NCBI GenBank assembly: GCA_045656645.1
Contig: JAZORN010000080.1
Span: 2,845-66,844, forward strand
Length of the DNA stretch: 64,000 nt
Reading direction: 5' to 3'
From: Clostridia bacterium
GTDB taxonomy: Bacteria > Bacillota > Clostridia > UMGS1883
Below are positions 47,270-57,551 of the stretch, piece by piece; the stretch's first letter is position 1, and every line of letters starts with the position of its first letter. Both the position numbers and the translations under genes were made by a program. The notes under the pieces were generated by a model. That model was not told the origin of the DNA. It was given only the letters and a program-made list of their open reading frames with translations, and did no database searches.

Positions 47270-48574
47270 TTACAGAATGTCTATGTGCTCGCCGTTTAAT
47301 GCCTTGTTCATACTTCTGACTGCACAGAATTTTCCGCACATAGAACAGCTTTCATCAATTTCAGGTTTTCTGTCATTGCGGATTTTCTCTGCTGTTTTGG
47401 GATCGAGCGAGCATTCCCACTGCATATCCCAATCAAATTTTCTTCGTGCATCAGCCATTTTATCATCAATATCCCTTGCGTGTGGAATATGCTTTGCAAT
47501 ATCCGCAGCGTGTGCCGCAATTTTTGATGCAATAATACCTTGTTTTACATCTTCGACATTGGGAAGTGCAAGATGCTCTGCAGGTGTCACATAGCAGAGA
47601 AAAGCCGCGCCCGATGCCGCAGCTAAAGCGCCACCAATAGCAGAGGTTATATGGTCATAACCTGGAGCAATGTCAGTTACAATAGGTCCTAACACATAAA
47701 ACGGTGCTCCCATACAGATTGTTTGTTGTAGTTTCATATTTGCCTCAATCTGATCAAGCGGCATATGCCCGGGACCTTCTACCATAACCTGAACATCCTT
47801 TTCCCAAGCTCTTTTTGTGAGTTCTCCGAGACGTACAAGTTCCTCAATCTGACATACATCACTGCTGTCCGCAAGACATCCGGGACGGCAAGCATCCCCA
47901 AGCGAGATTGTGACGTCATATTCACGGCATATATCAAGTATTTCATCATAATACTCATAAAACGGGTTTTCATTTCCTGTCATACTCATCCACGCAAATA
48001 CAAGAGAGCCGCCACGAGAGACAATATTCATTTTTCTTTTATGGTTTTTAATCTGCTCAATAGTCTTTCTTGTAATTCCGCAATGCAGCGTAACAAAGTC
48101 CACACCGTCTTCAGCGTGAAGTCTTATAACATCAATAAAATCTTTCGCAGTAAGCGTATCTAAATCTCTTTGGTAATGAATAACACTGTCATATACAGGA
48201 ACAGTGCCAATCATAGCTGGACATTCTTTGATAAGCTTTTGTCTGAACGGTTGAGTGTTTCCGTGAGAAGATAAATCCATAATTGCTTCAGCACCCATAT
48301 TCACTGCTGCCATTACTTTTTCCATCTCAATATCGTAATCCTTGCAATCTCTTGACACGCCGAGATTAACATTGATTTTCGTTCGGAGCATTGAGCCTAT
48401 TCCATTTGGTTCAAGACAAGTATGCAGTTTGTTCTTGCAGATTACAACCTGACCTTTTGCTACGAGGTCTCTTATTTCTTCCTCACTTCTGTATTCCTTT
48501 TTTGCCACAGATTTCATTTCAGGTGTTATAATACCTCTTTTTGCGGCATCCATCTGTGTAGTATAATTTCTCAT
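47270..48574 (-). CDS. thiC: phosphomethylpyrimidine synthase
   Basis: 434 aa. ThiC pattern with the C-terminal Fe-S motif CSMCGKFCA. Confidence 0.95.
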
Positions 48575-48587
48575 TTTACTCGTCCTT

Positions 48588-49403
48588 TCAAACTATGTAT
48601 TTTGGCTTTAAATCAAAGTTATGCATAAGCGGTCCTGAGCCATTTCCCAAATCAAGCCCTGCCATAAGAGCCTTAGAAATATATTCTTTTGCTTTTTCTA
48701 CTGATTTCGTAAGACTTAACCCTTTCGCAAGATTTGATGCAATGGCAGAAGAAAGTGTGCATCCCGTTCCGTGCGTGTTTGGATTATCTATTCTCTTACC
48801 GTCAAACCATATAATCCTGCCGTTTTCGCATAAAAGGTCGTTTGCATCCTTTATACTGTGACCGCCTTTTAAGAGGACACTGCACCCATAGCTTTTTTCG
48901 ATAAACTCTGCCGCCTTAATCATATCTTCCTTGCCCGCAATTTTCATATCTGACAAAATTTCTGCCTCGGGGATATTGGGCGTTACAAGAGTTGCAAGGG
49001 GCAGAAGTTTTGAAACCAATGTTTTTATTGCATCTGTTTTTATAAGAACAGAGCCGCTTGTTGAAACCATTACGGGGTCTACAACAATGTTATTTGCGTT
49101 ATAATATTTAAGTCTGTCTGCAATTACATCAATAAGCTCCTTTGATGACACCATCCCGATTTTTACGCTATCGGGAAATATATCCTCAAATACTGCATCT
49201 ATCTGTTCTTTCAGAAATTCAGGCGTAACCTCTGAAATTGCCCTTACCCCAAGTGTGTTTTGTGCAGTAAGTGCCGTAATCGCACTCATTGCATAAACAC
49301 CGTTCATTGTCATAGCTTTAATATCTGCCTGAATACCTGCACCGCCACTTGAATCACTGCCTGCAATAGAAAGTACTGCTTCCATTTTTTTCTCTTTTAC
49401 CAT
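48588..49403 (-). CDS. thiD: hydroxymethylpyrimidine/phosphomethylpyrimidine kinase
   Basis: N-terminus [19 protein letters not shown] and the ribokinase-fold motif [11 protein letters not shown]. Confidence 0.92.
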
Positions 49404-50032
49404 AGCTTTATCTCCTTTGCTTTTTCAATAAGTTCAATTGCAGCCTTTTTAGGATTTTCTGCTTTCATAATTGCAGATACCACGCAAATTCCACCGATAG
49501 GTATTCCTTTAAGAATATCAATATTATCCTTGTTAAGTCCGCCGATAGCATTAGCAGGTACAGGAACGCTATTGCAAATATCTTTTAATGTGTAGGTAGA
49601 TGTCAAAACCGTCTTTACCTTTGTTGTTGTAGGGTAAATGGCACCAACACCGAGATAGTCCGCTCCTTGTGTGTAGGCTTCCTTTGCTTGCGAAACTGTC
49701 TTTGCAGTCGCACCTACAATTTTATCTTCGCCCATAAGTTTTCTTGCAATAAAAACGGGCATATCGCTCTGTCCTAAATGAACACCCTCGGCATTGATTG
49801 CTAATGCTACATCAACTCTGTCGTCAATAATAAGCGGAACATTATATTTTTTTGTAATACTGTGGACTTTTCGGGCAAGCTCTATATATTCTCTTGTGGT
49901 CTTTTCTTTTTCACGAAGCTGTAATAATGTAGCGCCGCCTTTTAATGCTTCTTCTGTGCGGAAAAGAAATTCTTCCTCAGAGAAATTTGTACTGTCAGTT
50001 ATAAAGTATAATTTTGTATTTAATGATTTCAT
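49397..50032 (-). CDS. thiE: thiamine-phosphate synthase
   Basis: TMP-TENI pattern (LYFITD..., LLQLREK, GADYLGVGAIYPT). Confidence 0.9.
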   Translation of the reverse strand: MKSLNTKLYFITDSTNFSEEEFLFRTEEALKGGATLLQLREKEKTTREYIELARKVHSITKKYNVPLIIDDRVDVALAINAEGVHLGQSDMPVFIARKLMGEDKIVGATAKTVSQAKEAYTQGADYLGVGAIYPTTTKVKTVLTSTYTLKDICNSVPVPANAIGGLNKDNIDILKGIPIGGICVVSAIMKAENPKKAAIELIEKAKEIKLW

Positions 50033-50042
50033 TTGCTACACC

Positions 50043-51296
50043 TCACACATACAGATAATCGTTAAGCACGGGTTGTAACCCTTCATCTGCAATATCTTTA
50101 TACATCGCATCAAGGCTACGGTTATCATCAATTTCAAATTGTTCATCTCCCTGAGCACCGTCAGCTTCTTTTTTTGTATATTTGCTTTCGTGGTCACCTA
50201 TGCCCGTTGAAACACCTGCTGAAACTTTTGTTGCAGCTATTTTGACAATGCCGTTTCTGAAAGATGCGCTTTCACGGGAAGATACGGTGATACCCACAAA
50301 CGGGAGAAAAATTCTGTAAGCACATATAATCTGACAAAGCTGTTTTTCGTGAACATCAAGGGGATTTATTTTTTCGTTATTTACAATAGGCCTTAGTCTT
50401 GGGCAAGAGAGCGACATTTCTGCGTGAGGATATTTCTTTTGCAAGAAATAAACATGAAGTGCACTTGCCAAAGCATCCTTTCTGAAATCTGAAAGTCCTA
50501 AAAGCGCTGAAAATGCCACACCCCGCATGCCCGCCCTGAGTGCCCGCTCCTGGGCGTCAAAGCGGTAAGGCCATACACGTTTAGCCCCCAGCAGATGGAG
50601 CTTTTCATATTTTTCGGTATCGTATGTTTCCTGAAAAACGGTTACATAGTCAGCTCCGCACTCATGAAGATATTTATATTCATCAGTATTTACGGGATAA
50701 ATTTCAAGTCCAACCATTCTGAAATACTTTCTTGCGAGCTTGCACGCCTCGCCGATATAGTCTATATTGCTATGAGCACGACTTTCGCCCGTAAGTATTA
50801 AAATTTCCTCCATACCACTATCTGCTATAACTTTCATTTCTTTTTCAATCTGCTCTGTAGAAAGCTTCATTCGCTTGATATGGTTATAACAGTTAAAACC
50901 GCAATAAACGCAGTAGTTTTCACAATAATTTGCTATGTAAAGCGGTGTGAACAGATAAACAGTATTCCCAAAATGTTTACTTGTTTCAAGTCTTGCTTTT
51001 TCTGCCATTTGTTCTAAATAGGCTTCAGCCGCAGGAGAGAGAAGTGCCTTAAAATCTTCAATAGTACATTTATCGTGCTGAAGAGCCGTTTTTACATCTT
51101 CCTCCGTATATTTTGAATAGTCAAAGGAATTCATTTGCTCCATTACATTTTTGCACACATCAGACTCGATTATCTCCATCCCCGGAAGATATTCCATATG
51201 ATTTGTACGGGAGGACGGCTTTGTTTCTATGCGGTGCTTTTTTTCGAGTGCTTCTTTTGATAAAAATTCCGAGTCAACAAAAAATTGATTTTCCAT
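50043..51296 (-). CDS. thiH: 2-iminoacetate synthase (tyrosine lyase)
   Basis: Radical SAM cluster CENYCVYCGF. ATG at 51296 with an aggagg RBS. The longer ORF (to 51593) overlaps thiG and is rejected. Confidence 0.9.
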   Translation of the reverse strand: MENQFFVDSEFLSKEALEKKHRIETKPSSRTNHMEYLPGMEIIESDVCKNVMEQMNSFDYSKYTEEDVKTALQHDKCTIEDFKALLSPAAEAYLEQMAEKARLETSKHFGNTVYLFTPLYIANYCENYCVYCGFNCYNHIKRMKLSTEQIEKEMKVIADSGMEEILILTGESRAHSNIDYIGEACKLARKYFRMVGLEIYPVNTDEYKYLHECGADYVTVFQETYDTEKYEKLHLLGAKRVWPYRFDAQERALRAGMRGVAFSALLGLSDFRKDALASALHVYFLQKKYPHAEMSLSCPRLRPIVNNEKINPLDVHEKQLCQIICAYRIFLPFVGITVSSRESASFRNGIVKIAATKVSAGVSTGIGDHESKYTKKEADGAQGDEQFEIDDNRSLDAMYKDIADEGLQPVLNDYLYV

Positions 51297-51306
51297 AGTT
51301 TGCCTC

Positions 51307-52077
51307 CTAATCACGCAAAAATCCCGTAAGAGGGTCTGAAGCTGATGCACCACGGGTAAGAACTCTGCCAAGACCTGACAAATATGCCTTTCTGCCTGCT
51401 TCAATAGCATTTTTGAAAGCAGATGCCATAAGTGGCAGATTTCCGCTTGTTGCGAGTGCCGTATTTGCCATAATAGCGGCAGCCCCCATTTCCATAGCTT
51501 CGCAGGCCTGTGATGGCTTACCAATACCTGCATCAACAATAACCGGCAAATCAATTTCATCAATGAGTATCTGAATAAAATCCTTTGTCGCAAGACCTTT
51601 ATTTGAACCTATCGGAGAAGCAAGGGGCATTACAGCCCCTGCCCCTGCATTAACAAGGTCACGGGCAACATTCAGGTCGGGGTACATATACGGCATTACA
51701 ACGAAACCGTCATTTGCTAAAATTTCTGTTGCCTTTATAGTTTCCTGATTGTCAGGCAGTAAATATTTTGAGTCACGCATAATTTCAATCTTAACAAAAT
51801 TACCGCAACCAAGTTCACGGGCAAGCCTTGCAATTCTTACTGCTTCCTGGGCAGTTCTTGCTCCGCTTGTGTTAGGTAAAAGAGTAATTCCATCAGGAAT
51901 ATAGTCAAGTATGTTTTCTTGCTCCTTTGTATTGGCTCTGCGGACTGCGAGTGTAATAATCTCAGCTCCGGCATCTTTTACCGCTGCTTCAATAAGATTT
52001 AATGAGTATTTACCTGAACCTAATATAAAGCGGGAATTAAATTCGTGTCCGCCAATTACAAGCTTATCATTATTCAT
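51307..52077 (-). CDS. thiG: thiazole synthase
   Basis: ThiG pattern including FVKIEIMRD (Schiff-base Lys region). ATG at 52077 with an aaggaagg RBS. Confidence 0.92.
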
Positions 52078-52090
52078 AATAAAACCTTCC

Positions 52091-52726
52091 TTATTCTTCA
52101 AAATTTTCTGATATAATTCTGAGCACCATATGTGCCTGATGAGAAGCACATACACAAACTCTTGATGCCACAAGACCAATTGTGTCTTTGACATCACTTT
52201 TCTCATCACCGCAAAGATAAAAACGGTTTGAAACTTTTCTCGTTTTAATTAAATTGGCACTATGAAGTCCTGCCATTCCTGATGCGGCAACGATATATTT
52301 TTCTGGCATTTTTGTTAAAACAAAGTTAACAATATCTGCTTTTGCTTCTGCATTATCAAATGCTTCGCAGATTATATCGGCACTTTTTAAAAGCTTATAA
52401 TAATTGTTTTCATCCAAATAAGCAGTATGTATTTCTGTTTCAAGATATGGTGCAACTTCCTTGAGATTGCAAATCAGAGCTTCGGTCTTATACATACCAA
52501 TCTGTGAGGCTTTATATTGCTGCCTGTGTAAATTTGTAATATCAACCTTATCAAAATCAATCAGTATTAGTTTTCCAACACCTGCTCTTGCAAGTAATAT
52601 TGCAATGTTTGAGCCAAGACCTCCAAGACCGCAAATTGCAACTGTTGACGATGAAATTTTACTGTGCAACTCTTTACCGTGCCTTTCCTCAAGTGCCTTT
52701 ATCCATTCATTTTTATCAGGTATCAT
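52091..52726 (-). CDS. thiF: ThiS adenylyltransferase (E1-like)
   Basis: Nucleotide-binding loop [10 protein letters not shown]. 211 aa. Located between thiS and thiG. Confidence 0.85.
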
Positions 52727-52727
52727 A

Positions 52728-52922
52728 TTAACCTCCTCCTACGAAACTTACAACCTCAACGCTATCGCCGTCACAAAAGTTTGTATTTTCGTATTGTGAT
52801 TTTGCGAGAATTTCTCCGTTCAATTCTACTGCAACACGATTTATATCGTATCCTGCATCCGATAGATACTTTGCTATGCTTATGCCGATGGCATCAAAGC
52901 TTTCTCCGTTAATCTTTACCAT
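52728..52922 (-). CDS. thiS: sulfur carrier protein ThiS
   Basis: 64 aa ending in GG. ATG at 52922 with a ggaggtg RBS. Confidence 0.85.
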   Translation of the reverse strand: MVKINGESFDAIGISIAKYLSDAGYDINRVAVELNGEILAKSQYENTNFCDGDSVEVVSFVGGG

Positions 52923-52943
52923 CCTATTCACCTCCATTGCAAT

Positions 52944-53092
52944 AAAAAAAGGAAGCTACCGATTTGGTAACTTCCAATTATACATCGTTATTCCTTAGCT
53001 GTTGCTCAGGCATCCCTACGTTGGCATTATCCAAATCAGGTTCTCGGTCGAAGGTCATACCTTCCTCTCAGCCTGTAATACAAGCTCCCGTT
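52944..53092 (-). promoter_or_regulatory. TPP (THI-box) riboswitch with terminator expression platform
   Basis: Minus strand reads ...ggctgagag...gaacctgatttggataatgccaacgtagggatg..., which is the THI-box core. It is followed by hairpin ggaagttacc/ggtagcttcc plus ttttttt (52944-52975), directly upstream of thiS. Confidence 0.9.
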
Positions 53093-53262
53093 TTTTTATT
53101 TATTTTTGTATATTAAATTAAATTATTCCCACTCGCTCATGGTTTTGTAACCTCAACTGAATAAGCTAATAAATCGTGTTTCGCAGTGGTCATATTCTAT
53201 ATATTACCATAATTCTTTTGACTTTTCAATATTTTGTTGCCAAAATGTTGCCACAGCTTTTG

Positions 53263-55146
53263 CTATTTATGTTTTCGTATATATTGAAATATCAATTTTG
53301 ATAAATCTTTTATACTATCATCTAGTTCCTTAGCGGTGTTTTTATGGTCAATCAATCCGGAAGAGGAATGTGATATCGGATTAGAATTCCGCAGGTTATG
53401 TGCAGTTGATATTATAGTTTCGCTATCTTCTATTTCTGCATAAAACCCAAGAAAAGCCTTTTCTTTATAAAATCCTTTATAATTGGGCTTTTTTCCCTCA
53501 TGGTTTTCATTAAATACAAAATCCAAGTCGGCAGTTACTCTGTCAAAAAAGTTTTTATAATATGCAAATGCAGCCATGTTGTTTTTTCTCTTTGTTTCAC
53601 ACAAGTACATAAAATATAAGTATGCCGCCTTGTTATCTTTCTTAATAATATCACAAAGCCGATTGATACGATGCGGTTTTATCGAAATGACAAAACTTTC
53701 TTTGCACCCATCTGTGTAATATCTGAATAAATTTGGATGGTATTCCTTTATTATATTCAATAAATCCCAATGCTGAAATTTACTTTGTATTAAATATGAG
53801 ATAGCAATTGTTGTATCATAAGAATTCCACTTACCACTTCGATAACGAGTAAACAATTGATTCAGAAACGCTCTTATTGCTTTACCGCATTGCGTTTTCA
53901 TAATCATTACTGTTAATCTTTTTGGATCTAAATTTATGAAAGCTATACTTTGTTTGATTAACTCAAGAATTTGATTGGCTACTTCTTGTGTATGTAGCTC
54001 TTCTTCATTTTCATACACAAAATAATTAAAAACTTCATTTGGAGTAAATTCGATATCTTTTGAAGTAAAGTGTTTATCTATAAGCTCATTATACCTCTCT
54101 ACATCAACACTATCAAAAATAAGTTCATCTGATAAGTCCTGTAAAAATCTCAACAAAGCACCTTTAAACAAGTCTTCTATGTTGTGTTTCTGTCCATTAT
54201 AGTATTCGTCATACAATGATTTTTTTAGTTCCTCATTTATTTCTGATGCCTTTCTGATACAACACTTCTTCGTATTCAAGGATAAACCATATTCTTTTAA
54301 TATAGAGGAATATTCATTCCTTATTTCATTATAAGTATCTCCTAAATACATCAAAGATTTATCAGAAGCTATTAAAATATACAAATCATCCACATATCTA
54401 ACCATACGAAAAGATGTAATATCAGGAACCTTTGCATCTAAAAATTCATGTAGTTTTAAATCAACATTGTCTAAATAAACGACAGTTGACAGATACGATG
54501 AAGCAACACTATTTTCTATCAGTGGAAATCTCCCATCACCACAATATGTAAGTAACTCCTTATAAATTTGCAATTGTGTTTGCGAAAATTTAACATCAGC
54601 AGCATTACATACAGCATCAATTTGAGATATAAGTTTATCTACATTAATATTTGAGAAAAAGTTAGTAATGTCCGTTTTTATAAAATACTGATATCCGTCA
54701 ATACAAGCATTTAATTCTTTAAAGAAATTATCATAATCTTGCTTATACTTAGGGCGCATAAATTCATAATTTCCCGCATAATAAACCGAAACATTTTGTG
54801 GTCTTATGGGATTATACTCATTAAATATTTCTTTTCCAACTGACTGTAGCACTAAATATAAAATTGGTGAAATAAGCGATGAATTTCTAAAACTTCCATC
54901 GCTTTTTTGCAAATAATTTTCAGACTGTTGCATAGCATCAGGAAAAAATACTATTGACGATGTTTTTATATATCGCTCATAAAAATCTTCACTTGATATG
55001 TACCCTTTGTCTTCTCTAGAAATTTTAGTGAAGGGAAACCATTGTAAGTATGCTTTTGCAGAAAGAGTGTTTAATGAAAAATACATTTCACAAATACTTT
55101 TCCATGTATCATAACTTATACCTAACAATAGAACACCTCCACCCAC
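53263..55146 (-). CDS. AbiA-like reverse transcriptase with C-terminal HEPN-like domain
   Basis: RT motifs: SLISPILYLV (1/2), IKTDITNFFSNI (A), PLIENSVASSYLSTVVYL (B'), RYVDDLYILI (C; YVDD at 54385-54396), YGLSLNTKKC (D). The ~330-aa helical C-terminal region has LRNSNPISH (Rx6H, 53368-53391). The start could instead be the TTG at 55128, after ggaggtg. Confidence 0.8.
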   Translation of the reverse strand: MGGGVLLLGISYDTWKSICEMYFSLNTLSAKAYLQWFPFTKISREDKGYISSEDFYERYIKTSSIVFFPDAMQQSENYLQKSDGSFRNSSLISPILYLVLQSVGKEIFNEYNPIRPQNVSVYYAGNYEFMRPKYKQDYDNFFKELNACIDGYQYFIKTDITNFFSNINVDKLISQIDAVCNAADVKFSQTQLQIYKELLTYCGDGRFPLIENSVASSYLSTVVYLDNVDLKLHEFLDAKVPDITSFRMVRYVDDLYILIASDKSLMYLGDTYNEIRNEYSSILKEYGLSLNTKKCCIRKASEINEELKKSLYDEYYNGQKHNIEDLFKGALLRFLQDLSDELIFDSVDVERYNELIDKHFTSKDIEFTPNEVFNYFVYENEEELHTQEVANQILELIKQSIAFINLDPKRLTVMIMKTQCGKAIRAFLNQLFTRYRSGKWNSYDTTIAISYLIQSKFQHWDLLNIIKEYHPNLFRYYTDGCKESFVISIKPHRINRLCDIIKKDNKAAYLYFMYLCETKRKNNMAAFAYYKNFFDRVTADLDFVFNENHEGKKPNYKGFYKEKAFLGFYAEIEDSETIISTAHNLRNSNPISHSSSGLIDHKNTAKELDDSIKDLSKLIFQYIRKHK

Positions 55147-55183
55147 AATTTGTATTCAAATAATTTTGATATAGTTTTTAATA

Positions 55184-56311
55184 TCACATTTCCTTAATAA
55201 AACCTATATTATATAACTTGTCCACTAGTGCAATTATATTTTCTGTTTGCACATCATCACTATCAAAAACAACAGACGCTACATAATCAGGTTTCTGATT
55301 ACGTTCATGTGCGTTCATATCGAAAATATAAAACTTAAGTCTAAGGTCATCACATACATATCCGCCAATATGTGTTTTGTCTACGTCAAATTCAGAATAA
55401 TGTGAAATAATTGATGAACCATCCTCAGCGGAAATAGTGTAGCTATAGCTATCTTTCAAGTGCAATCTTATATAGCTGGTTTCTTTTTCATCAAATAACC
55501 GGAATAAATTTTTAAGCAGCGTAAATGCTTTAAGGAAATTATATGGTGACACAAAGAAACTAATTCTTGCACAATTGTCATGTGCAGTATGATTTGTTCC
55601 AATCGTTTTATTCTCCTTGCGGTAAATTATTTTAACACCATTAGCAACTATACAAGCGGTTCTTTCACTGTGGTATTTATCATTTCTTGAAAAAGAAATA
55701 TGATTATCTTCTAAATAACCAACAATGCTATTAAAAAATTTTTCAATATCGTATTTGATGCTTTTTCCATCTACTGTTTGTTCTCCGTATATTATGCACT
55801 CAGCTTTTTCGATTACATTTTCAAAATTAACTGTATTAAATGATTCCGCAGAAAGATTCTTAATAACTTCTAAGTAATCGTTATGTTCAAAAGCATTTGA
55901 AAAATGGTATTCAAATGTTCTATTTACAATGGTAATAAAATTATTAAGACTATCTTCTGAAGATATATTGAACCCTTGCAGCAAGTTGAGTGGCGCTTTT
56001 AATGAGCCAATATCCACACCTATTCCTACGGGAATAACTTGAATTCCTTTCGAATAAGCATAACCCGCTTCAAAATATATCCAACCCGAAGAAATAGAGT
56101 TTTCAGTTACAAAAACAAACATAATTTGTGCTGCTTGCAACCCTTCTTCTATTTTATGAATCCAATTAGTACCAAAAGGGATGCTTTGTCCATCACTAGA
56201 CATAAAAATATCCATAACTCCGCCCGTTACCGAGTCCAACTTATTTTTTATTGAAAGAATTATATCCTTATCTTTCGATGAATGACTAAAAAACAATGTG
56301 GGTTTGCCCAT
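55184..56311 (-). CDS. TIR-domain protein with uncharacterised C-terminal domain
   Basis: N-terminal TIR/ThsB-like pattern LFFSHSSKDKD...NWIHKIEEGL...MFVFVTENSISSGWIYFEAGYA, with a candidate catalytic Glu at 56069-56071. About 240 further residues match nothing I recognise. ATG at 56311 (RBS gaggtga). The ORF opens at a GTG at 56332. Confidence 0.7.
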   Translation of the reverse strand: MGKPTLFFSHSSKDKDIILSIKNKLDSVTGGVMDIFMSSDGQSIPFGTNWIHKIEEGLQAAQIMFVFVTENSISSGWIYFEAGYAYSKGIQVIPVGIGVDIGSLKAPLNLLQGFNISSEDSLNNFITIVNRTFEYHFSNAFEHNDYLEVIKNLSAESFNTVNFENVIEKAECIIYGEQTVDGKSIKYDIEKFFNSIVGYLEDNHISFSRNDKYHSERTACIVANGVKIIYRKENKTIGTNHTAHDNCARISFFVSPYNFLKAFTLLKNLFRLFDEKETSYIRLHLKDSYSYTISAEDGSSIISHYSEFDVDKTHIGGYVCDDLRLKFYIFDMNAHERNQKPDYVASVVFDSDDVQTENIIALVDKLYNIGFIKEM

Positions 56312-56352
56312 ATTTATTTGTTCACCTCTCACTTTCTAAACACGAATAAATA

Positions 56353-56949
56353 CTAACACACACAAGCCTCAAGTACTCTTATCAGCACCCTATAGTTGTC
56401 AACAGACAATATTGATGCTTCTAAGAGTTCTTCTTTATCTACATTTCCCCAATTAAGGTCATATCCCATACGCTTTGCCATAAGGCGGATAAATTCACGG
56501 ATAGAACGACCATTGCCCTCTCTGAAAGGATGTATAATGTTGAGTTCTGCCATAACATATGCCAAATTATCAAAAAACTTTTCTTCGTCGGTTTCCTTGA
56601 GCATATTTTTCTCTTTTATTTTTGCAAATACTTTATCAAGCTCTCTATCAATCAAGTTCGGCGGATAAAACATTGTATCCGCTTTACTAATTTGCTCTCG
56701 TCTGATTTTACCGGCAAACGAATAAATATCTTCAAAAATAAACTTGTGTATATTCATAAGATGCGCTTTTGAAAAGTTACCCTTTATCGGATTCTTCAAA
56801 AGTTCCATTTGCTTAATAAGTGTAATTTCTTCTTCAGCGGTTTTGAGAAGTTTATTATCTCTTATATTCAATTTATTTTTCAATATATTACTATCGGGAT
56901 AGCAATAAATTGATTGGGTAGTTGTATAAACATCGTATTTCGAAAACAT
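56353..56949 (-). CDS. Fic-family AMPylating toxin (class I type)
   Basis: Canonical Fic motif HPFREGNGRSIR (56497-56532). 198 aa. It sits directly downstream of a VbhA-like antitoxin gene. Confidence 0.85.
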   Translation of the reverse strand: MFSKYDVYTTTQSIYCYPDSNILKNKLNIRDNKLLKTAEEEITLIKQMELLKNPIKGNFSKAHLMNIHKFIFEDIYSFAGKIRREQISKADTMFYPPNLIDRELDKVFAKIKEKNMLKETDEEKFFDNLAYVMAELNIIHPFREGNGRSIREFIRLMAKRMGYDLNWGNVDKEELLEASILSVDNYRVLIRVLEACVC

Positions 56950-56951
56950 AA

Positions 56952-57323
56952 TTACACCCTCTGCATATATTTAAGCTTCAATTCTTCGATTACATCAGTA
57001 TAGCTTACTTTGCCACTATCAATTCTTTTGAGGTTTTTAATACTTTCTTCGCTAACGGTCATACTCTCTACTGCAAATGTTCCTTTTAGATTTTTTAAAT
57101 TGCTTTCAAAATCGTTAGATGCCATATCTGTTTTATTTCTCCAATCGGTATATTTACCTGATTTAATTCTCGCATCAGCAGGTTTCTCTGCATCTTTTGG
57201 TAAAAGCCAAGCGCCTGCAATTTTCTTTGCGCCAATAATTCTCCCCTCATTACACAAAACGGTAATTCTTCTTACAGAAATTCCCCACATTAAACTTGCT
57301 TCTTTTATTGTTAGTATATCCAT
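56952..57323 (-). CDS. HTH DNA-binding domain fused to VbhA/FicA-like antitoxin domain
   Basis: N-terminal MerR/excisionase-type HTH (LTIKEASLMWGISVRRITVLCNEGRIIGAKK). The C-terminal GTFAVESMTVSEESI fits the inhibitory (S/T)xxxE(G/N) helix except for the last position (Glu at 57066-57068). 2-nt gap to fic. Confidence 0.7.
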   Translation of the reverse strand: MDILTIKEASLMWGISVRRITVLCNEGRIIGAKKIAGAWLLPKDAEKPADARIKSGKYTDWRNKTDMASNDFESNLKNLKGTFAVESMTVSEESIKNLKRIDSGKVSYTDVIEELKLKYMQRV

Positions 57324-57344
57324 TTCAACACCTCATTTATAAAC

Positions 57345-57373
57345 ATTATATACCATAAATAGAATAATGTCAA
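57345..57373 (-). promoter_or_regulatory. consensus promoter upstream of antitoxin-fic-TIR-RT cluster
   Basis: Minus strand: TTGACA (57368-57373), exactly 17 nt, TATAAT (57345-57350). A gaggtg RBS then precedes the ATG at 57323. Confidence 0.6.
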
Positions 57374-57551
57374 TATATTCATAAAATTATGTGGAATTAG
57401 ACAATGATTTTTCGCAGCAAAGGTCAAACAAGAAACATCTGTTACAATGTGCCTTTATATGTCTTTAAAAAGCCACAAAAAAATGTTATAATAATTTTCA
57501 ATACTATCTTTTTGTTGCTTATATTCGTTATATATAGTAGAGATATTAAAT

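Follow-up and report, generated by a model that had tools for sequence, protein, structure and literature searches.

What does a large reverse transcriptase (RT) gene encode when its product resembles neither retron nor group II intron enzymes and half of the protein has no assigned function? This question was raised by an initial annotation of the window, a 64,000-nt stretch of DNA from a Clostridia bacterium, in which an open reading frame at 53263-55146 was described as a standalone-type RT with a C-terminal half unassigned apart from a HEPN-like motif. The frame itself is as described, uninterrupted and on the minus strand, with 627 codons when counted mechanically from a GTG at 55146. The description of its product does not stand: the protein is AbiA, matched over its full length by models from three curated libraries. 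We assign it with high confidence to AbiA-large (UG/Abi class 1) and expect it to act as a single-protein anti-phage defence enzyme, its activity being attributed by homology to AbiA of Lactococcus lactis. The gene, hereafter abiA, is a routine full-length member of an already characterised family.

The coding sequence very probably begins at a TTG codon at 55128 rather than at the GTG, and would then occupy 53263-55128 of the minus strand (621 aa, with the stop codon at 53263-53265). A GGAGG Shine-Dalgarno sequence (55136-55140, minus strand) lies 7 nt 5' of the TTG, and the same arrangement is kept at two related loci, L001 and L018. The residue encoded by the TTG also lines up with Met1 of L. 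lactis AbiA and with the HMM starts, and AbiA homologs are mostly ~621-626 aa long. With this start, the gap to the upstream ORF becomes 55 nt instead of the 37 nt that were reported, and that we likewise measure, from the GTG. On the downstream side, the spacer given earlier as ~160 nt measures 161 nt.

Family membership was established by profile, sequence and structure comparisons. The NCBIfam model abortive_AbiA (TIGR04499) matches over profile positions 2-615 of 615 with 745.7 bits (cutoff 250), PADLOC AbiA models match end to end with 805.7 bits (positions 1-603 of 604) and 780.8 bits, and the Pfam family HEPN_AbiA_CTD (PF18732) is matched over positions 2-131 of 132 (193 bits, E=2.3e-57). 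After AbiA, the best RT model in PADLOC is UG20, at 52 bits. A phmmer search of the PDB returned L. lactis AbiA (8oz7) as its sole match (E=3.5e-73, residues 7-620 to 103-718), and BLASTP aligns the two proteins colinearly, 1-613 to 1-615, at 28% identity (E=3e-77). When the AF2 structure prediction was compared using Foldseek, as had been suggested, four 8oz7 chains came out on top (E=5e-25 to 4e-24, ~645 columns), above AbiK and above the runners-up, G2L4 RT and Abi-P2 (best E=3e-7). The quality of this model is moderate (pLDDT 68.9, TM ~0.5 to 8oz7) because the underlying alignment contained no relative below 64% identity, and it was kept out of fine structural claims. The AbiA models and the 8oz7 match confirm the earlier placement of the enzyme in the AbiA/AbiK class. 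Homologs at E<=1e-10 fall into 664 clusters, many of them at 65-70% identity; a 67%-identical one (P0060) carries the NCBI name "AbiA family abortive infection protein". Among plasmid relatives, the Lactococcus AbiA gene, at 28% identity, alone spans the full length.

Other types of RT were considered and set aside. The group II intron RT model (TIGR04416), with its cutoff at 300 bits, reaches 34.8, and among retron-type RT models the best one, RT_II-A, reaches 30.7 bits against ~800 for AbiA; an Rfam search of 44-64 kb at E<=1 returned neither an intron RNA nor a retron msr/msd RNA family. The exclusion of both classes by the initial annotation was therefore sound. For the DRT2, DRT3 and DRT9 types, which combine an RT of the UG2, UG3/UG8 or UG28 clade with a conserved ncRNA upstream, no corresponding PADLOC model is present among the 25 matches listed, where the best Drt-numbered model is Drt8, at 42 bits.

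The 621-aa protein is colinear throughout with L. lactis AbiA (628 aa; AbiA-large, encoded on plasmid pTR2030), and both consist of RT-like fingers and palm, then an alpha-solenoid helical domain, then a HEPN domain. In the present case, the RT-like polymerase domain covers residues ~1-297 (54238-55128, minus strand), with a Pfam RVT_1 match (E=1.4e-9) at residues 139-299. An RT domain had indeed been predicted, and RVT_1 and the YVDD motif support it, but its fingers start at the N-terminus and not at residue 80. It contains motif A D153, the active site R244-Y-V-D-D248 and the DNA-contact tyrosines Y27, Y128 and Y132. A flexible linker loop follows (residues ~298-318; 54175-54237, minus strand), with low pLDDT at 303-313. 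In the BLASTP alignment, its Y306 falls on Tyr298, a priming residue in L. lactis AbiA, while the second priming tyrosine, Tyr303, aligns to an Asn; Y309 and Y310 are close by.

In place of an RT thumb, residues ~319-487 (53668-54174, minus strand) form a domain that is predicted to be all-helical (from ~317 to 480) and is colinear with the helical domain of 8oz7, in which Y372 is the equivalent of the DNA-stacking Tyr363. Such an alpha-solenoid replacing the thumb is a known element of Abi/UG polymerases (PMC11077055, PMC9226505). The ~280 residues of open role that had been placed between the RT domain and the HEPN-like motif number ~170-190 and correspond to the helical domain seen in 8OZ7 (PMC11077055). 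The C-terminal HEPN domain (PF18732) extends over residues ~488-621 (53266-53667, minus strand) and carries the motif AHNLRNSNPISHSS: R580-NSNPIS-H587 is of the same type as RNSNPVSH at 581-588 of L. lactis AbiA. The HEPN-like motif that had been noticed is genuine and belongs to the HEPN_AbiA_CTD family, although it does not end the protein, since ~32 residues follow it. The C-terminal half was already explained, because the crystal structure of L. lactis AbiA published in 2024 (8OZ7; PMC11077055) covers such a region. The same paper had answered, for the AbiA family, the questions of templating, of the middle region and of the HEPN fold that were listed as open.

The residues D153, R244-YVDD248, Y306, Y128, Y132, Y372, R580, N581, N583, P584 and H587 do not vary across 37 homologs, in which Y27 is nearly invariant. 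Every L. lactis AbiA residue with a mapped functional or DNA-contacting role is retained, except Tyr303; the roles of the priming, DNA-contact and active-site residues come from work on the L. lactis protein (PMC11077055).

As that protein, at 28% identity, is the sole biochemically characterised member, we infer the activity, oligomeric state and phage range of the present enzyme from it, and with them its biochemistry, dimerisation and defence phenotype. By analogy with 8oz7, the C-terminal HEPN domain would hold two AbiA copies together as a dimer. The RT-like fingers and palm, through the YVDD motif and its D247 and D248, would make ssDNA of random sequence with neither a template nor a nucleic-acid primer. 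The hydroxyl of a tyrosine in the loop behind the palm, which is flexible, would serve as the primer (here Y306), and the alpha-solenoid domain at the thumb position would grip the nascent ssDNA. Upon phage infection, this DNA synthesis would disturb phage DNA replication.

A different enzymology would apply if the protein were a template-dependent defence RT, working in the manner of retrons, DRT2 or DRT9 with a 141-nt trailer downstream of abiA as its RNA partner. The trailer (53122-53262, minus strand) is conserved no less than the coding DNA, with 95% identity at L001 (coding DNA 90%) and 91% at L018 (coding 84-88%); it is present at L029 too, and contains promoter-like hexamers, in sites at 53229-53201 and 53151-53122. 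Its homology, however, stops at one and the same base (GGGAATAAT) whichever of four downstream contexts follows, which resembles the end of a mobile element. Neither the 81% subclade nor any more distant homolog has the trailer, and in the latter the downstream gap can shrink to 23-37 nt. The trailer is best described as the conserved end of a mobile cassette that travels with abiA. Folding of the 161-nt downstream spacer gives no structure signal (z-score -0.71), none of the 33 pairs predicted by RNAalifold on the four available trailers covaries, and a short-word blastn of both abiA flanks against 28 loci found homology at L001 and L018 only. In the 55-nt gap upstream of the gene, conservation is limited to the RBS.

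The Rfam search over 44-64 kb returned, besides one chance-level match, a single element: a TPP riboswitch (RF00059, 60.7 bits for a gathering threshold of 54.3, E=6e-10) at 52996-53101 of the minus strand, next to a terminator-like hairpin at 52975-52951. This riboswitch belongs to the thiS-thiF-thiG-thiH-thiE-thiD-thiC operon, outside the abiA system, and accounts for the rest of the 161-nt spacer. The interval 53100-53262, proposed earlier for RNA-seq as a test for an ncRNA, thus resolves into the end of a mobile cassette and the riboswitch of the thiamine operon. On the basis of the Rfam, folding, covariation and blastn results, an ncRNA in the abiA flanks was rejected, in line with the initial remark that the flanks, which we set at 55 nt and 141 nt, leave little room for a template RNA. 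No retron, DRT or group II model exceeds 52 bits, compared with ~800 bits for AbiA, and polymerisation by L. lactis AbiA needs no template (PMC11077055); we consider an RNA-templated enzyme extremely improbable here.

The AbiA gene lies in a low-GC, 4.3-kb islet, HTH-Fic-TIR-abiA, that spans 53122-57388, was horizontally acquired and has inserted immediately 5' of the TPP riboswitch. GC content is ~0.28-0.31 across the islet versus ~0.38-0.43 across the thi operon, and a search of the islet borders for repeats or att sites yielded only short, chance-level repeats. The other three genes, all on the minus strand and identified with Pfam, encode an HTH_17 protein (56952-57323), a Fic AMP-transferase-like protein (56353-56949; VbhT-like in NCBIfam) and, between Fic and abiA, a TIR-domain protein (55184-56332; 375 aa from an ATG at 56311; TIR_2, E=3.4e-11). 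A putative sigma-70 promoter, TTGACA-17-TATAAT with 12/12 matches to the consensus, is located upstream of the HTH gene (57345-57373, minus strand), and the minus strand holds no terminator-like site from 57345 to 53263. This promoter possibly serves the whole string, and abiA may share a transcript with the TIR and Fic genes; these might in principle alter AbiA function. Defence-type genes surround abiA (Fic, a match to PDC-S04, and TIR here, restriction-modification (R-M) genes in relatives) and give indirect support to the expected phage resistance.

The TIR gene could form a two-gene system with abiA, in which an NADase-type TIR effector would be activated by AbiA's ssDNA product, or would regulate it. 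The two genes share a strand, are 37-55 nt apart with no terminator-like site in between, and recur as a pair in five metagenome contigs at ~99-100% identity; these contigs, however, represent one strain-level sequence. The best whole-chain Foldseek matches of the TIR protein are SPARTA TIR-APAZ proteins, which are nucleic-acid-responsive, but the matches are weak (E=8.6e-6, TM 0.22-0.28), and a profile search of the PDB gave a match limited to the TIR domain of Cat1. The C-terminal alpha/beta domain of the protein falls in no assigned family and bears a faint resemblance to SPARTA TIR-APAZ. Gene order argues against a partnership. A 1218-bp segment (55141-56358) with the TIR gene is missing in the closest abiA relatives, L001 (92%) and L018, and the gene occurs at 0/28 genome loci bearing abiA homologs. 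Conversely, TIR homologs with 83% identity adjoin a DpnII R-M cassette and have no abiA in their vicinity, while in other genomes the same cassette is followed by abiA alone. As L. lactis AbiA also acts as a single gene (PMC11077055), a TIR-AbiA system appears very unlikely. Judging from these comparisons, the TIR gene is a lineage-specific insertion, and hence context rather than a conserved partner. The locus also offers a glimpse of gene traffic: one R-M cassette can be followed by either abiA or TIR, and TIR has dropped in between Fic and abiA.

The HTH-Fic-abiA trio is kept at L001, L018, L029 and L039-L044, where AbiA identity is at least 81%, and in all examined relatives of this group Fic and abiA are tightly spaced (~36-44 nt). 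Together with the perfect consensus promoter 5' of the HTH gene and the match of Fic to the PADLOC candidate defence family PDC-S04 (E=5.6e-70), this spacing would suit a functional trio, for instance a FicT/antitoxin-like pair that regulates or backs up abiA. The trio is nevertheless confined to one shallow lineage, with HTH proteins 91-99% and Fic proteins 86-97% identical, as co-inheritance on one mobile element would produce. It is absent at loci with AbiA identity of 72% or less, where the neighbours are wholly different. Insertion of the TIR gene between Fic and abiA disrupted neither, and the simpler account of a Fic toxin-antitoxin pair is that it serves addiction or defence on its own. 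We therefore hold a functional trio to be unlikely. More generally, all-against-all ORF clustering found no conserved partner gene of abiA, no neighbour family being present in more than 4/28 loci, and the intergenic gaps beside abiA across these 28 loci are often below 50 nt. Functional coupling of AbiA, in this lineage specifically, with the TIR gene inserted beside it or the Fic module linked to it is conceivable because the genes are adjacent and co-oriented with no terminator between them, and we give it a very small chance. If it were true, the protein-linked ssDNA made by AbiA would possibly activate the TIR protein, making a composite polymerase-to-NADase defence operon.

Read as a single-protein AbiA, the enzyme can be compared with known systems. 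With L. lactis AbiA it shares RYVDD, the tyrosine of the priming loop (Tyr298/Y306), the DNA-contact tyrosines and the RNSNPxSH HEPN motif, and neither has a conserved partner gene or an ncRNA. It differs by its 28% identity, by the Asn at the Tyr303 position and by its setting, an islet on the chromosome of a low-GC gut genome of Clostridia type instead of a dairy plasmid; its gene is also part of an HTH-Fic-TIR-abiA string. AbiK (PDB 7R06/7R07) and Abi-P2 (PDB 7R08) have the RT-like palm and fingers and the thumb-replacing helical domain in common with it, as well as, by homology only, protein-primed untemplated ssDNA synthesis and anti-phage defence. Both lack HEPN and form hexamers or trimers instead of dimers, the helical domain of AbiK is larger, and their Foldseek matches are much weaker (E about 1e-6 to 1e-5, compared with 5e-25 for AbiA). 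A related RT and helical core exists in AbiA-small (Mestre et al. 2022, PMC9226505), whose PADLOC model PDLC03742 matches residues 73-476 with 107 bits. AbiA-small has no fused HEPN and has a SLATT membrane protein as its partner, whereas the window protein has a fused HEPN, and no SLATT protein is found among the four islet genes, the neighbours screened.

The discovery value of the locus is small, since abiA here is a textbook AbiA-large gene, one to which standard annotation pipelines would give the correct name. Its interest lies in what it adds to the natural history of the family. AbiA is common in gut Clostridia-type genomes, and the islet illustrates how defence islets are assembled. 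At 28% identity, this divergent natural variant keeps nearly all key residues of L. lactis AbiA, including the HEPN R-x6-H. That invariant motif of the family showed no RNase activity in vitro, yet it is strictly conserved, which keeps alive the question of a triggered HEPN activity.

Three independent curated libraries (NCBIfam, PADLOC and Pfam) assign the window protein, encoded on the minus strand at 53263..55128, to AbiA over its whole length. With TIGR04499 (AbiA family abortive infection protein), NCBIfam gives 745.7 bits (cutoff 250) over profile positions 2-615 of 615; two PADLOC AbiA models match end to end, with 805.7 and 780.8 bits; and Pfam recognizes HEPN_AbiA_CTD (PF18732, E=2.3e-57, positions 2-131 of 132) together with RVT_1 (E=1.4e-9). 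The initial annotation had treated the protein as an unclassified reverse transcriptase (RT), a description superseded by these whole-length matches, which bear out its hint at the AbiA/AbiK class. Its separation of the protein from retron and group II intron RTs also holds: the best non-AbiA UG model in PADLOC reaches 52 bits, and a group II intron RT/maturase reading is rejected, with 34.8 bits against a cutoff of 300. Among all PDB sequences the sole match is 8oz7, the crystal structure of Lactococcus lactis AbiA (E=3.5e-73, essentially full length), with which BLASTP gives a colinear alignment at 28% identity (1-613 on 1-615). In the UG/Abi classification, AbiA-large proteins with HEPN form class 1, whereas AbiA-small proteins lack the HEPN domain and pair with a SLATT protein (PMC9226505); the AbiA-small-like PADLOC model gives 107 bits against the window protein. 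A database search returned 664 clusters with E<=1e-10, more than 100 of them 64-82% identical, and NCBI already names one 67%-identical homolog "AbiA family abortive infection protein". The window gene is an ordinary AbiA-large gene, already recognised.

L. lactis AbiA is built from three domains. An RT-like fingers/palm domain has no thumb; in the thumb's place is a 12-helix alpha-solenoid, the "helical domain" of ~170 residues, which touches the single-stranded product; and through the C-terminal HEPN domain, which is entirely helical, the two subunits of the dimer meet. With neither template nor primer, the enzyme synthesises random-sequence ssDNA linked to protein, an activity that D240N abolishes. 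Its priming residue sits in a flexible 290-310 loop: Tyr298 is the tyrosine that AbiA proteins conserve, and L. lactis has Tyr303 as an alternative. Deletion of HEPN yields an inactive monomer, and no RNase activity was detected despite an RNSNPVSH (R-x6-H) motif (PMC11077055). Questions initially posed as open for this enzyme class had already been answered in print at the family level.

By pairwise alignment, L. lactis Tyr27, Tyr130, Tyr134, Asp239/Asp240, Tyr298, Tyr363 and R581...H588 correspond to window Y27, Y128, Y132, D247/D248 (within R244-YVDD), Y306, Y372 and R580...H587, respectively. Y27 is nearly invariant in 37 aligned homologs and all the others are invariant, while L. lactis Tyr303 differs in aligning to Asn311, with Y309 and Y310 nearby. 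Because of this mapping and the AbiA structure (PMC11077055), the stretch of ~190 residues from the RT to the HEPN motif is identified as the known helical domain, and the C-terminal half is not, as first thought, unassigned. The motif AHNLRNSNPISHSS is indeed present, at aa 576-589, but does not end the protein, since ~32 residues come after it. AbiA membership is accompanied in the window protein by the three-domain architecture and by conserved catalytic, priming, DNA-contact and HEPN residues. A structure predicted from the 37-sequence alignment was of moderate quality (pLDDT 68.9, pTM 0.50). Its top Foldseek matches in the PDB were the four 8oz7 chains (E=4.8e-25 to 3.5e-24, ~645 aligned columns, TM ~0.51-0.54); the next, 18 orders of magnitude weaker, were G2L4 RT, Abi-P2, DRT6, UG15/DRT4, AbiK, retron RTs and group II RTs. 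The Abi-P2, AbiK and DRT structures proposed at the outset for comparison thus fall far behind AbiA.

The ORF at 53263..55146 on the minus strand is present as first described, with 627 codons counted from GTG. We take TTG 55128 as the probable start, giving 621 aa, because it is preceded by a ribosome-binding-like arrangement (GGAGG-tgttcta-TTG) whose GGAGG, 7-nt spacer and TTG are kept in the two closest genomic relatives (L001 and L018), which diverge farther upstream; because both the PADLOC AbiA profile and the native Met1 of L. lactis AbiA begin at residue 7 of the 627-aa ORF; and because homologs are mostly ~621-626 aa long. The upstream flank, rightly put at 37 nt from the GTG, becomes 55 nt from the TTG, and the stop lies 161 nt from the next downstream feature, as estimated.

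When 44-64 kb was searched against Rfam (E<=1), the only real match was a TPP riboswitch (52996-53101, minus strand; 60.7 bits, gathering threshold 54.3). A terminator-like hairpin (52975..52951, minus strand) lies 3' of it, followed by ORFs of a thiS-thiF-thiG-thiH-thiE-thiD-thiC-type operon (47270-52937, minus strand), named from translations only; the N-terminus of a 516-aa ORF in this operon (50043-51593) looks over-extended. The abiA stop is followed directly by a 141-nt trailer (53122-53262), which L001 shares at 95% identity and L018 at 91%, and which a third locus, L029, also carries. Homology breaks off at the same base, after GGGAATAAT, in all four cases, and the sequences beyond are unrelated, a pattern that looks like the end of a mobile cassette. 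The predicted fold of the trailer is no more stable than that of shuffled sequence (z=-0.71), covariation is seen in 0 of its 33 predicted pairs, and neither the 81% subclade nor any more distant relative has it; in several of these relatives only 23-47 nt separate abiA from the next ORF, and the ORF upstream touches or overlaps abiA. Given these results and the Rfam search, nothing points to an msr/msd-like or DRT-like ncRNA, for which there is usually no room either, in agreement with the little room noted initially. Promoter-like sites in the trailer (53229..53201 and 53151..53122, minus strand) point into the riboswitch, and no terminator was found between abiA and the riboswitch, so the thi operon may be transcribed here from promoters brought by the defence islet, or by abiA read-through.

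The abiA gene is the last of a co-oriented minus-strand string that also encodes an HTH_17 protein (56952-57323), a Fic protein (56353-56949; motif HPFREGNGRSIR, PADLOC PDC-S04 at E=5.6e-70, VbhT-like in NCBIfam) and a TIR protein (55184-56332; Pfam TIR_2). A perfect sigma-70 consensus promoter, TTGACA-17-TATAAT, precedes the HTH_17-Fic pair at 57373..57345, and no minus-strand terminator-like site was found between it and the TPP riboswitch. DNA comparison delimits the islet to ~53105-53122 to ~57388, with a GC content of ~0.28-0.31 against ~0.38-0.43 in the thi genes. The islet, which carries other defence-type genes besides abiA, was horizontally acquired. No recombinase occurs within it or immediately beside it in the window; in locus L039, the HTH-Fic-abiA trio has a large serine recombinase (1-1603; Resolvase/Recombinase/Zn_ribbon_recom) just upstream, which suggests a mobile element of the serine-recombinase type as the carrier of the trio. 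The abiA homolog of L018 (8001-8987, a Clostridia MAG) is a decayed copy with an 879-bp internal deletion, equivalent to window 53363-54241, and retains HTH-Fic upstream and the trailer downstream.

HTH-Fic is linked to abiA in every examined relative with at least 81% AbiA identity (HTH 91-99%, Fic 86-97%) and is absent beside abiA homologs of 72% identity or less. We read this linkage as probable co-inheritance on one mobile element; a functional link with abiA is possible but unsupported. In the C-terminal part of the HTH protein, TFAVES may be read as resembling the (S/T)xxxE(G/N) Fic-inhibitory motif.

The TIR gene lies in a 1218-bp block (55141-56358) missing from L001 and L018, where Fic directly precedes abiA. 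Relatives of the TIR protein occur in none of 28 genome loci with abiA homologs, and the only further copies of the exact TIR-abiA pair are in metagenome contigs identical at strain level. A TIR homolog of 83% identity directly follows a DpnII-type R-M cassette (Dam-like methylase, DpnII endonuclease, N6_N4 methylase) where abiA is absent. These observations rule out the TIR gene as a conserved abiA partner. After the same cassette (80-88% aa identity), L005, L007 and L008 have abiA and L034-L038 have a TIR homolog, which clearly shows cargo being swapped at a single slot of a defence island. Since TIR is missing from relatives and alternates with abiA after this cassette, the two genes behave as independent, interchangeable defence-island cargo. 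The TIR protein has 375 aa from ATG 56311, with TIR_2 at ~aa 7-115 (aa 14-122 of the 382-aa ORF from 56332); its ~250-aa alpha/beta C-terminal domain matched no Pfam, PADLOC or PDB sequence family. Its AF2 model is good (pLDDT 85.5), and its best whole-chain fold matches, the SPARTA TIR-APAZ proteins, score weakly (E=8.6e-6, TM 0.22-0.28). With 646 clusters the family is widespread, and it is located in defence islands; the protein may be a TIR defence protein that works as a single gene and has yet to be characterised. At most 4 of the 28 loci have any one neighbour family in common; abiA has no conserved partner gene or RNA, and it is very improbable that abiA is functionally coupled to the inserted TIR gene or to the linked Fic module.

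As a family member the window gene was already known, and the observed ORF calls for only minor corrections. By analogy with L. lactis AbiA (PMC11077055, PMC13064643), the window protein would dimerise via HEPN, make tyrosine-primed, template-independent ssDNA and interfere with phage DNA replication. Phage escape mutations would be expected in genes for single-strand annealing and for Holliday-junction resolvases, and defence by this protein may not need host cell death.
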